In this document: piece after piece, positions 1,613-5,008 of the stretch | Numbering within the stretch: position 1 is the stretch's first letter | Layout: each line of letters begins with the position of its first letter | Virus record (IMG/VR): IMGVR_UViG_2521172734_000004 | Coordinates: 1 to 7,811 of that record | Length of the DNA stretch: 7,811 nt | Source: a virus | Taxonomy: Duplodnaviria; Heunggongvirae; Uroviricota; Caudoviricetes | Strand: one strand, 5' to 3' | Notes under the pieces: generated by a model | Seen by the model: the letters and a program-made list of their open reading frames with translations, nothing else | Database searches by the model: none | What the model was told of the DNA's origin: nothing | Position numbers and translations under genes: made by a program

Positions 1613-4600
1613 ATGGGTAAAGGCAGCAGTAAGGGGCATACCCCGCGCGAAGCGAAGGACAACCTGAAGTCCACGCAGCTGCTGAGTGTGATCGATGCCA
1701 TCAGCGAAGGGCCGATTGAAGGTCCGGTGGAGGGATTAAAAAGTGTGCTGCTGAACAGTACACCGGTGCTGGACAGTGAGGGGAATACCAACATCTCCGG
1801 TGTTACGGTGGTGTTCCGGGCAGGTGAGCAGGAGCAGTCACCGCCGGAGGGATTTGAATCCTCCGGCTCCGAGACGGTGCTGGGTACGGAAGTGAAATAT
1901 GACACGCCGATCACCCGGACCATCACGTCGGCAAACATCGACCGTCTGCGCTTTACCTTCGGTGTACAGGCACTGGTGGAAACCACCTCAAAGGGAGACA
2001 GGAATCCGTCGGAAGTTCGCCTGCTGGTTCAGATACAGCGTAACGGTGGCTGGGTGACGGAAAAAGACATCACCATTAAGGGCAAAACCACCTCGCAGTA
2101 TCTGGCCTCGGTGGTGGTGGATAACCTGCCGCCGCGCCCGTTCAGTATCCGGATGCGCAGGATGACACCGGACAGCACCACAGACCAGCTGCAGAACAAA
2201 ACGCTCTGGTCGTCATACACCGAAATCATCGATGTGAAACAGTGCTACCCGAACACGGCACTGGTCGGCGTGCAGGTGGATTCGGAGCAGTTCGGCAGCC
2301 AGCAGGTGAGCCGTAATTATCATCTGCGCGGGCGTATTCTGCAGGTGCCGTCGAATTATAACCCGCAGACGCGGCAATACAGCGGTATCTGGGACGGAAC
2401 GTTTAAACCGGCATACAGCAACAACATGGCCTGGTGTCTGTGGGATATGCTGACCCACCCGCGCTACGGCATGGGGAAACGTCTTGGTGCGGCAGATGTG
2501 GATAAATGGGCGCTGTATGTTATCGGCCAGTACTGCGACCAGTCGGTGCCGGATGGTTTTGGTGGCACGGAGCCGCGCATCACCTGTAACGCTTACCTGA
2601 CCACACAGCGCAAGGCGTGGAATGTGCTTAGTGATTTCTGCTCGGCGATGCGCTGTATGCCGGTATGGAACGGGCAGACGCTGACGTTCGTGCAGGACCG
2701 ACCGTCGGATAAGGTGTGGACCTATAACCGCAGTAATGTGGTGATGCCGGATGATGGCGCGCCGTTCCGCTACAGCTTCAGCGCCCTGAAGGACCGCCAT
2801 AATGCCGTTGAGGTGAACTGGATTGACCCGGATAACGGCTGGGAAACGGCAACAGAGCTTGTGGAGGACACGCAGGCCATTGCCCGTTACGGTCGTAACG
2901 TCACGAAGATGGATGCCTTTGGCTGTACCAGCCGGGGGCAGGCACACCGCGCCGGGCTGTGGCTGATTAAAACGGAACTGCTGGAAACGCAGACCGTGGA
3001 TTTCAGCGTGGGCGCAGAAGGGCTTCGCCATGTACCGGGCGATGTTATTGAAATCTGTGATGATGACTATGCCGGTATCAGCACCGGTGGTCGTGTGCTG
3101 GCGGTGAACAGCCAGACCCGGACGCTGACGCTCGACCGTGAAATCACGCTGCCATCCTCCGGTACCACGCTGATAAGCCTGGTTGACGGAAGTGGCAATC
3201 CGGTCAGCGTGGAGGTTCAGTCCGTCACCGACGGCGTGAAGGTGAAAGTGAGCCGTGTTCCTGACGGCGTTGCAGAATACAGCGTATGGGGACTGAAGCT
3301 GCCGACGTTGCGCCAGCGCCTGTTCCGCTGCGTGAGTATCCGTGAGAACGACGACGGCACGTATGCCATCACCGCCGTGCAGCATGTACCGGAAAAAGAA
3401 GCCATCGTGGATAACGGGGCGCACTTTGACGGCGACCAGAGTGGCACGGTGAATGGTGTCACGCCGCCAGCGGTGCAGCACCTGGCCGCAGAAGTCACTG
3501 CAGACAGCGGGGAATATCAGGTGCTGGCGCGATGGGACACACCGAAGGTGGTGAAGGGCGTGAGCTTCCTGCTCCGTCTGACCGTAACAGCGGACGACGG
3601 CAGTGAGCTGCTGGTCAGCACGGCCCGGACGACGGAAACCACATACCGCTTCAGGCAACTGGCGCTGGGGCGTTACACGCTGACGGTCCGGGCGGTAAAT
3701 GCGTGGGGGCAGCAGGGCGATCCGGCATCGGTATCGTTCCGGATTGCGGCACCGGCAGCGCCTGTCACTATTGAACTGATACCAGGGTATTTTCAGATAA
3801 CAGCGGTCCCGAAACTGGCTGTATATGACCCGACGGTGCAGTTTGAGTTCTGGTTCTCGGAAAAGCGTATTATCGATATCAGGCAGGTTGAAACCAGCGC
3901 GCGTTATCTTGGTACGGCGCTGTACTGGATAGCCGCCAGTAGCAATATTAAGCCGGGTTATGATTATTACTTTTATATCCGCAGCGTGAACACCGTTGGT
4001 AAATCGGCATTTGTGGAGGCCGTTGGTCGGGCGAGCGATGATGCGGAAGGTTATCTGAATTTTTATAAAGGGTTGATCAATAAAACGCATCTCGGCAAGG
4101 AACTGCTGGAAAACTTTGAGCTGACGGAAGATAACGCCAGCAAACTGGAGGAGTTTTCGAAAGAGTGGAAGGACGCCAACGATAAATGGAATGCCATGTG
4201 GGGCGTCAAAATTGAGCAGACCAAAGACGGCAAACATTATGTCGCGGGGCTTGGCCTCAGCATGGAGGATACGGAGGAAGGCAAACTGAGCCAGTTCCTG
4301 GTTGCCGCTAACCGTATCGCGTTTATTGACCCGGCAAACGGGAATGAAACGCCGATGTTTGTGGCGCAGGGCAACCAGATATTCATGAACGACGTGTTCC
4401 TGAAGCGCCTGACGGCCCCCACCATTACCAGCGGCGGTAATCCTCCGGCATTTTCCCTGACACCGGACGGGCGGCTGACGGCGAAAAATGCCGATATCAG
4501 CGGTAACGTGAATGCGAACTCCGGGACGCTCAACAACGTCACGATTAACGAGAACTGCCGGGTTCTGGGAAAACTGTCCGCGAACCAGATTGAAGGCGAT

Positions 4601-5008
4601 CTCGTTAAAACAGTGGGCAAAGCTTTCCCCCGTGACTCCCGGGCACCGGAGCGGTGGCCATCAGGGACCATTACCGTCAGGGTTTATGACGATCAGCCGT
4701 TTGACCGGCAAATTGTTATTCCGGCTGTGGCATTCAGTGGCGCTAAGCATGAGAGAGAGCATACTGATATTTACTCCTCATGCCGTCTGATAGTGCGGAA
4801 AAACGGTGCTGAAATTTATAACCGTACCGCGCTGGATAATACGCTGATTTACAGTGGCGTTATTGATATGCCTGCCGGTCACGGTCACATGACACTGGAG
4901 TTTTCGGTGTCAGCATGGCTGGTAAATGGCTGGTATCCCACAGCAAGTATCAGCGATTTGCTGGTTGTTGTGATGAAGAAAGCCACTGCAGGCATCACGA
5001 TTAGCTGA
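1613..5008 (+). CDS. J: Tail tip / host specificity protein J (central tail fiber), 1131 aa
   Basis: ORF 1613..5008 with GGAG 8 nt upstream of the ATG. The N-terminus [39 protein letters not shown]... and long internal stretches match lambda gpJ (1132 aa) as I recall it. Size, position after K-I and before lom are all as in lambda. Confidence 0.95.

Follow-up and report, generated by a model that had tools for sequence, protein, structure and literature searches.

The sequence considered here is a 7,811-nucleotide (nt) stretch of a tailed-phage genome (Caudoviricetes; IMG/VR record IMGVR_UViG_2521172734_000004, positions 1 to 7,811), which we refer to as the window. Its list of open reading frames (ORFs) and its Pfam matches identify it as the tail-tip end of a lambda-like prophage. 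The gene in question is J, an intact ORF with lambda-like flanks (K, I and lom), and the subject of this analysis is the C-terminal portion of its product, where the host receptor would be recognized. The closest complete genome to the window as a whole is that of E. coli 55989, with 99.5% identity, and the O104:H4 outbreak strains match it at about 97%. The features of the window are collected in Table 1.

Table 1. Features of the 7,811-nt window, with details of the J gene and its tip.
Feature	Position (nt)	Strand	Remarks
L, 3' end	ends ~234
K			JAB and NlpC/P60 domains
I	880..1119 and 1139..1552		split ORFs
J	1613..5008	+	1131 amino acids (aa), intact ORF; tail tip attachment / central tail fibre protein; from ORF list and Pfam
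Lambda-type J body (hub, FNIII domains, helical shaft, most of beta-prism)	1613..4412	+	nucleotide identity to lambda mostly 0.9-0.99 per 100 nt
Conserved linker with module junction	4413..4545	+	includes lambda residue 964, fusion point of engineered chimeras
Receptor-binding ("specificity") module, residues 965-1131	4505..5005	+	1A2/O157-prophage allele class
Codon R1048	4754..4756	+	VT1-Sakai and 1A2 have K here; in an interstrand loop of the immunoglobulin (Ig)-like domain; AlphaFold 2 (AF2) query residue 119
Codon G1106	4928..4930	+	VT1-Sakai and 1A2 have N here; opposite lambda D1107 in the alignment; AF2 query residue 177
Intrinsic-terminator-like hairpin and T-run	5027..5056	+	GGGCACCAGAAATGGTGCCT then TTTTTATTGC; just after the J stop
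lom	5076..5675	+	Ail/Lom outer-membrane protein moron; PF06316, E = 2e-126
stf	5827..7194		side tail fibre, collagen-like repeats
DUF4376 gene	7197..7811		final codon of the window is the stop codon

With the J protein of lambda (NC_001416) as reference, J of the window is 88% identical overall by BLASTP, and this identity is distributed very unevenly. In successive bins of 40 residues it ranges from 0.80 to 1.00 up to residue 960 and then takes the values 0.68, 0.52, 0.35, 0.32 and 0.42. Residues 1-960 are 95.8% identical to lambda, with 40 mismatches, whereas residues 961-1131 are 46.8% identical, with 91 mismatches (45.5% for residues 965-1131 over ungapped columns). These proportions differ with P = 3e-54, based on Fisher's exact test, and this value, together with the sharpness of the boundary, rules out an effect of chance or of alignment. 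In the conserved part of J, 108 of the 154 nucleotide mismatches with lambda occupy third codon positions, so that this part is under ordinary purifying selection. The body (residues 1-960) is 95.8-96.3% identical to those of lambda, phage 434 and phage 2G7b, and just 66% identical to that of VT1-Sakai. An earlier note on this DNA had stated that about the first 960 residues of J track lambda and that about the last 170 diverge, and it was right on both counts. It had named more than about 90% identity to lambda J residues 960-1132 as the result that would speak against it; the 46.8% given above was obtained over 171 residues. The peptide that it described (ending in ATAGITIS) is the exact C-terminus of the J ORF, and nt 4500, where the note begins the diverged region, corresponds to codon 963. 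Its coordinates were right: the first difference typical of the diverged module is N965, and the switch in nucleotide identity takes place at about nt 4413-4545.

The diverged region belongs to a recognizable family. Over residues 1001-1131 (nt 4613-5005) PF12421 (Ig_GpJ_C) scores 127 bits, where the curated cut-off is 26.2 (E = 6.7e-37), and the match spans profile positions 1-135 of 135. The order of Pfam domains along the whole protein, namely FNIII-A_GpJ, Phage-tail_3, Ig_J, Ig_J_second, Phage_Tail_Tip and Ig_GpJ_C, is that of lambda J. By sequence, the best solved relatives are A8 gpJ 713 (9wca/9wcb, E = 2e-83) and lambda gpJ (8xcj/8xck, E = 2e-62). An AF2 monomer model covering residues 930-1131 presents an all-beta domain, with a pLDDT of 80-96 over residues ~1000-1119, and its top four Foldseek matches in the PDB are 9wca/9wcb and 8xck/8xcj, with E values from 3.5e-20 to 3.8e-17 and TM scores of 0.62-0.72. 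These entries represent, respectively, A8 gpJ in the closed form, A8 gpJ in the open form with OmpC G17 of EDL933, lambda gpJ in the closed form and lambda gpJ with LamB (PMC11101478). The module is a different allele of the C-terminal Ig-like receptor-binding domain of lambda gpJ, and the suggestion made earlier that the tip keeps the layout of the LamB-binding domain agrees both with the Pfam match and with the identity of the best solved relatives.

Comparison of the module (residues 965-1131) with those of related phages places it in a particular allele class. It is 100% identical to that of phage 2G7b (LR595866 / NC_049954), the J body of which is 95.9% identical to that of the window and the side tail fibre of which differs, and 98.8% identical (165/167 residues) to that of VT1-Sakai, an O157 prophage. 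The values then fall to 69.9% for phi21, 65% for A8, 47% for 434 and the value given above for lambda. For residues 961-1131 there was no BLASTP match to the J proteins of HK97 or N15, and matches to phi80 J were chance ones only (E above 3), although the J bodies of these three phages align to that of the window at 33-35%. The J ends of phi80 and N15 are of the FhuA type. These three J ends, with those of lambda and of phage 21-type phages, are the ones with which the earlier note had proposed an alignment as a check. The J protein of 434, used in the lambda h434 hybrid, shares with that of the window a body that is 96% identical and the domain family of the tip, but its module carries several loop insertions. 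Its receptor is OmpC according to the literature, and it is an independent OmpC-binding allele. Lambda gpJ itself shares the family and the Foldseek fold, with a body that is 96% identical, and presumably also the four distal loops, the trimer arrangement and the opening mechanism; it differs in having LamB as receptor and one extra residue in the loop at 1104-1107. A8 gpJ, the closest solved structure, has the C-terminal strand in common with the tip of the window. It binds OmpC, including the EDL933 variant; it differs in a 5-6-residue insertion in the loop at 1047-1052.

How the module came to reside on a lambda-type body is suggested by the course of nucleotide identity along the window, recorded per 100 nt. 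The identity to lambda, 434 and 2G7b is 0.9-1.0 across most of J, with a dip to about 0.8-0.9 over nt 3700-4200, and that to VT1-Sakai before the junction is about 0.55-0.9. In the bin that starts at nt 4413 the identity to VT1-Sakai leaps from 0.61-0.73 to 0.99, and from this bin on VT1-Sakai and 2G7b remain at 0.96-1.00 while lambda and 434 are at 0.52-0.75. The blastn alignment with lambda ends at nt 4545, where identity to lambda drops from 0.88-0.99 to 0.54-0.62. J is therefore a mosaic gene, with a lambda-type body and an exchanged tip module. The last ~167 residues represent a horizontally exchanged receptor-binding module, which recombination within the conserved linker (about nt 4413-4545) has probably attached to a lambda-type body of ~960 residues. 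Such an exchange has precedents. Residues 960-1132 of J constitute an experimentally defined "specificity region" and an independently exchanged module (PMC6646904), and the survey of 1207 natural homologues by Maddamsetti et al. led to the conclusion that these residues circulate independently (PMC6646904). Engineered gpJ chimeras have their fusion point in this same linker, at residue 964 of lambda gpJ (Brödel et al., Nature 2024, PMC11338833). The same definition of a specificity region bears out what had been said of this part of J earlier, namely that it sets host range.

The exchanged segment does not end with J, since the module travels with the terminator that follows it and with the first part of lom. 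Identity to 2G7b stays high across the terminator and on into lom, as far as about nt 5312. Over the terminator stretch the identity to VT1-Sakai and 2G7b is 97-100%, and phage 434 has an annotated terminator at the equivalent position. In the 5' part of lom, through about nt 5312, nucleotide identity is 0.99-1.00 to 2G7b and 0.48-0.63 to lambda. We also observed that the segment 5013..5312, comprising the terminator and the first ~240 nt of lom, is 99-100% identical to 2G7b and shares the ancestry of the J module. From about nt 5313 the identity to 434 and VT1-Sakai climbs to 0.95-0.99 and that to 2G7b drops to 0.94-0.96, and this switch suggests a second recombination junction inside lom.

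The receptor used by this allele class may be approached through gpJ-1A2, a fusion carried by an Eligo vector in which lambda J is joined at residue 964 to a tip of the same class (Brödel et al., PMC11338833). The gene texts of 1A2 and A8 were taken from the supplement of that paper; as machine-read texts they contain small indels, and 1A2 is engineered and recoded. The protein of the window was consequently aligned to the 1A2 DNA by a frameshift-tolerant dynamic program. Over residues 916-1131, 197 of the 205 comparable positions are identical to the machine-read 1A2. The mismatches that lie clear of reading errors convert HEREH to HEKEH and VNGW to VNNW, i.e. R1048K and G1106N, and the remaining ones abut reading errors. 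The same two residues separate the window from VT1-Sakai, so that gpJ-1A2 and the VT1-Sakai (Sp15) tip, with K1048 and N1106, agree with the window at 165 of 167 residues; the 1A2 protein also has a lambda-type body joined near residue 964, although it is an engineered, recoded fusion and the J gene of the window is a natural mosaic. The A8 text in the supplement matches the A8 sequence in the PDB, which indicates that headings and sequences in the supplement are correctly paired.

The delivery experiments with 1A2 are informative. About 98% of cells receive DNA by way of the OmpC of EDL933, designated variant G17 (PMC11338833); the title of PDB entry 9wcb bears out this equivalence. At the highest multiplicity of infection, delivery was at least 76% through 20 of 23 OmpC variants, and the weak variants were K-12 OmpC (G1) with 2%, G2 with 1.5% and G40 with 0.9% (PMC11338833). 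On wild-type, LamB-positive MG1655, 1A2 reached 5% of cells as against 98% for wild-type lambda, and 1A2 works in lamB-deleted cells when a suitable OmpC is supplied (PMC11338833). In later use, the 1A2 tip has targeted O157 strains by way of OmpC. By analogy with this near-identical tip, the receptor of the window J is most probably OmpC and not LamB. We infer that the R1048/G1106 variant found in the window would likewise use OmpC, the receptor having been measured on 1A2, which is 98.8% identical. The earlier note had offered two possibilities, a different outer-membrane receptor or a different LamB allele; the first of these is favored by the use of OmpC by 1A2, and the data for 1A2 lend no support to the second.

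The trimeric arrangement and the distal loops have been solved for two relatives, lambda with LamB (8xcj) and A8 with OmpC (9wcb), and these complexes suggest a mechanism by analogy. At the end of the central fibre, three domain copies would push their distal loops into a trimeric porin, and this binding would open the tail tip. In this allele class, OmpC would be that porin, in its EDL933-like form and most other natural variants, and neither the K-12 variant nor LamB would serve. A8, in this respect, differs in that it also uses K-12 OmpC.

Other published sources bear on these questions to varying degrees. Our search of the literature found no receptor data for the J proteins of 2G7b or of the 55989 prophage, and on the receptor typing of lambdoid J proteins in general it yielded nothing of use. 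The SNIPE paper, which includes the PhiR phages, tested ManYZ dependence and does not cover outer-membrane receptors, and a receptor-prediction preprint of 2026 leaves out J tips of the lambda type. For Phi330, a siphophage of enterohemorrhagic E. coli (EHEC) that uses OmpC, the receptor-binding domain is reported to be 35-40% identical to those of lambda and 434.

Several points weigh against the assignment to OmpC. For the exact allele of the window, it depends on the relative 1A2. Phage phi21, with LamB as native receptor, acquires the use of OmpC through one J mutation, and because A8 (OmpC) and phi21 (LamB) are 82% identical, receptor identity is not safely inferred at moderate identity; phi21 J is itself ~70% identical to that of the window. 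In addition, the source data for Extended Data Fig. 2c (supplementary file 10 of PMC11338833) repeat the panel-b numbers for 1A2 and A8. The values of panel C (OmpC-EDL933) equal those of panel B (OmpC-MG1655), placing 1A2 at 2% on OmpC-EDL933. This sheet is at odds with the text, with Fig. 1b, with the G17 panel and with Extended Data Fig. 8a, which agree with one another, and the repeated values are probably a copying mistake in the spreadsheet as deposited. The propagation hosts give little help. The phages of this class with a named host were grown on E. coli C (PhiR5_1 and PhiR55_1) or on ECOR13 (PhiR40_1, PhiR46_1, PhiR47_1 and PhiR49_2), so that K-12 is the host for 0 of 6 class records as against 5 of 18 others, a difference that is not statistically significant. 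The five relatives grown on K-12 all have other J alleles. Since it lacks significance, this tally is offered as a note on consistency and nothing more. Finally, the two residues that distinguish the window from 1A2 fall at positions homologous to specificity hot spots of lambda, and the L and I genes of the window are frameshifted, so that tails may never be assembled from this prophage copy. Each of these last two points leads to an alternative that deserves consideration.

The first alternative accepts OmpC as the receptor but supposes that the R1048/G1106 tip recognizes another range of OmpC alleles, whether K-12-type or 55989/O104-type, or that it has dual specificity for OmpC and OmpF or for OmpC and LamB. 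Residues 1048-1049 of lambda are an indel hot spot, and D1107, with which G1106 aligns, is critical for the gain of OmpF use by lambda (PMC6646904). In the AF2 model G1106 lies in a long loop that follows the strand at query residues 162-173. When 27 cluster representatives of the class (at least 85% identity) were compared, residue 1048 was R in 20, K in 5, Q in 1 and G in 1, and residue 1106 was G in 13, N in 9 and D in 5; the polymorphism of the class as a whole clusters in the loops at 1045-1053, 1090-1092 and 1103-1106. Such clustering is the pattern expected if the loops are tuned to porin alleles. The spectra of OmpC variants used by A8 and 1A2 differ as well, and the OmpC of 55989 is separated from that of EDL933 by 13 substitutions in exposed loops. 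On the other side, the change from R to K is conservative, and the class phages with named hosts were grown on E. coli C or ECOR13 rather than on K-12. We regard a porin-allele range unlike that of the K1048/N1106 form, in any of the versions listed above, as less likely than not, although if the proposal is true the two loop residues would be a natural switch that tunes J to OmpC alleles, for example those of the 55989/O104:H4 type. The R1048/G1106 form is not peculiar to the window; it is also carried by 2G7b, by 55989 and by no fewer than 214 complete-genome records whose nucleotide identity is at least 99%.

The comparison of porins was made between the OmpC of 55989 (L011, 20107..21210), that of K-12 (L012) and chain A of PDB 9wcb (EDL933). 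The 13 substitutions between 55989 and EDL933 are accompanied by 0 gap columns, while 55989 and K-12 are separated by 8 substitutions and 8 gap columns. The OmpC of 55989 has loop lengths of the EDL933 type, is without the FTSG insertion of K-12 and carries an extra four residues, TIGT, at the place of VING in EDL933. This comparison could have told against OmpC as the receptor; like the propagation hosts and the clustering of polymorphism in the loops, it is consistent with it. We noted that this porin is a mosaic, K-12-like in two variable stretches (DNKD and TDAQNTAAY) and EDL933-like in two length-variable loops.

According to the second alternative, the J tip is a relic in a decaying prophage from which selection has been removed and would be uninformative about present host range. 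Relative both to lambda and to the 99.5%-identical prophage of 55989, the window contains three single-base insertions, at nt 15, 77 and 1008. The first two, a T at nt 15 and a G at nt 77, shift L out of frame 1, first into frame 2 and then into frame 0, with the result that the Cys-rich C-terminal ~50 residues of L are out of frame with its body. The third, an extra G, truncates I after codon 43 and splits this tail-tip assembly gene in two, a 79-aa ORF in which no more than 43 codons are right and a remaining ORF of 137 aa, so that I is either a pseudogene or the site of a sequencing error. Either the prophage copy is unable to build tails or these are sequence errors; all three indels are in the first 1010 nt and there are 0 in the other 6.8 kb. 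The 55989 prophage has intact L and I. What speaks against a relic is that J is an intact ORF of 1131 codons, and that its module is 100% identical not only to that of 2G7b, a complete phage genome assigned to the species Nesevirus nv2G7b, but also to those in hundreds of genomes. The insertions may, moreover, be sequencing errors, and a broken neighboring gene leaves the binding properties of the module unchanged. We consider a relic rather unlikely.

A third alternative, that the module still binds LamB, perhaps a non-K-12 allele, and that its divergence is arms-race drift on one receptor, is very improbable. In its favor are the homology of the domain with those that bind LamB in lambda (46%) and phi21 (70%), the latter phage natively using LamB, and the departure of the window from 1A2 at two hot-spot residues, but the low delivery by 1A2 to LamB-positive MG1655 and its activity in lamB-deleted cells both argue against it. 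The most probable reading remains that the tip recognizes OmpC.

The genes beyond J follow the 55989 prophage closely, with the same lom, Stf and DUF4376 genes. A megablast match to 55989 that ends at nt 6923 at first suggests divergence beyond this point, but this end is an artefact of a 45-nt repeat array. The protein alignments show that the match runs on to the end of the window, and the remainder is identical. The array itself, within stf at 6754..6923, has 3.8 copies with 93% matches and encodes collagen-like Gly-X-Y repeats. Stf of the window differs from its 55989 counterpart only in that 12 residues are deleted, in frame, where the array begins, and 55989 possesses one more 12-aa collagen repeat block; the difference in length is a variation of repeat copy number in the shaft of the side tail fibre. 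The DUF4376 protein encoded directly after stf is identical to that of 55989 and its gene sits where a tail-fibre assembly gene would be. A longer DUF4376 ORF, from a GTG at nt 7116, overlaps the end of stf, and the PGAP annotation of 55989 has a longer form.

Of 5426 complete E. coli genomes, 3350 have a match to the 509-nt region that encodes the tip over 80% or more of this region; 214 records reach 99% identity or more, and 1911 lie at 95-99%. The module is also present, at 90% protein identity or more, in 57 records of the phage collection, and these are mostly O157 Stx1a/Stx2a and PPompW prophages. This allele class is the commonest one in E. coli prophages, represented by O157 Sakai and EDL933, many long-tailed Stx phages, 2G7b and 55989. 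Given that the allele is common, that the receptor of its class has been measured and that a related complex has been solved, the picture that emerges belongs to already known biology.

As a whole, this case is one of textbook lambdoid mosaicism in the "specificity region" of J and carries little weight as a discovery, the receptor class having been established previously by means of an engineered vector. Its practical implication is that annotation of a gene as a lambda-like J should not be taken to imply the use of LamB; the present allele points to OmpC and to hosts other than K-12, and this bears on the prediction of host range and on the choice of indicator strains. The natural variants in the loops at 1045-1053, 1090-1092 and 1103-1106 also constitute a ready-made set for retargeting lambda-based delivery particles to different alleles of OmpC.

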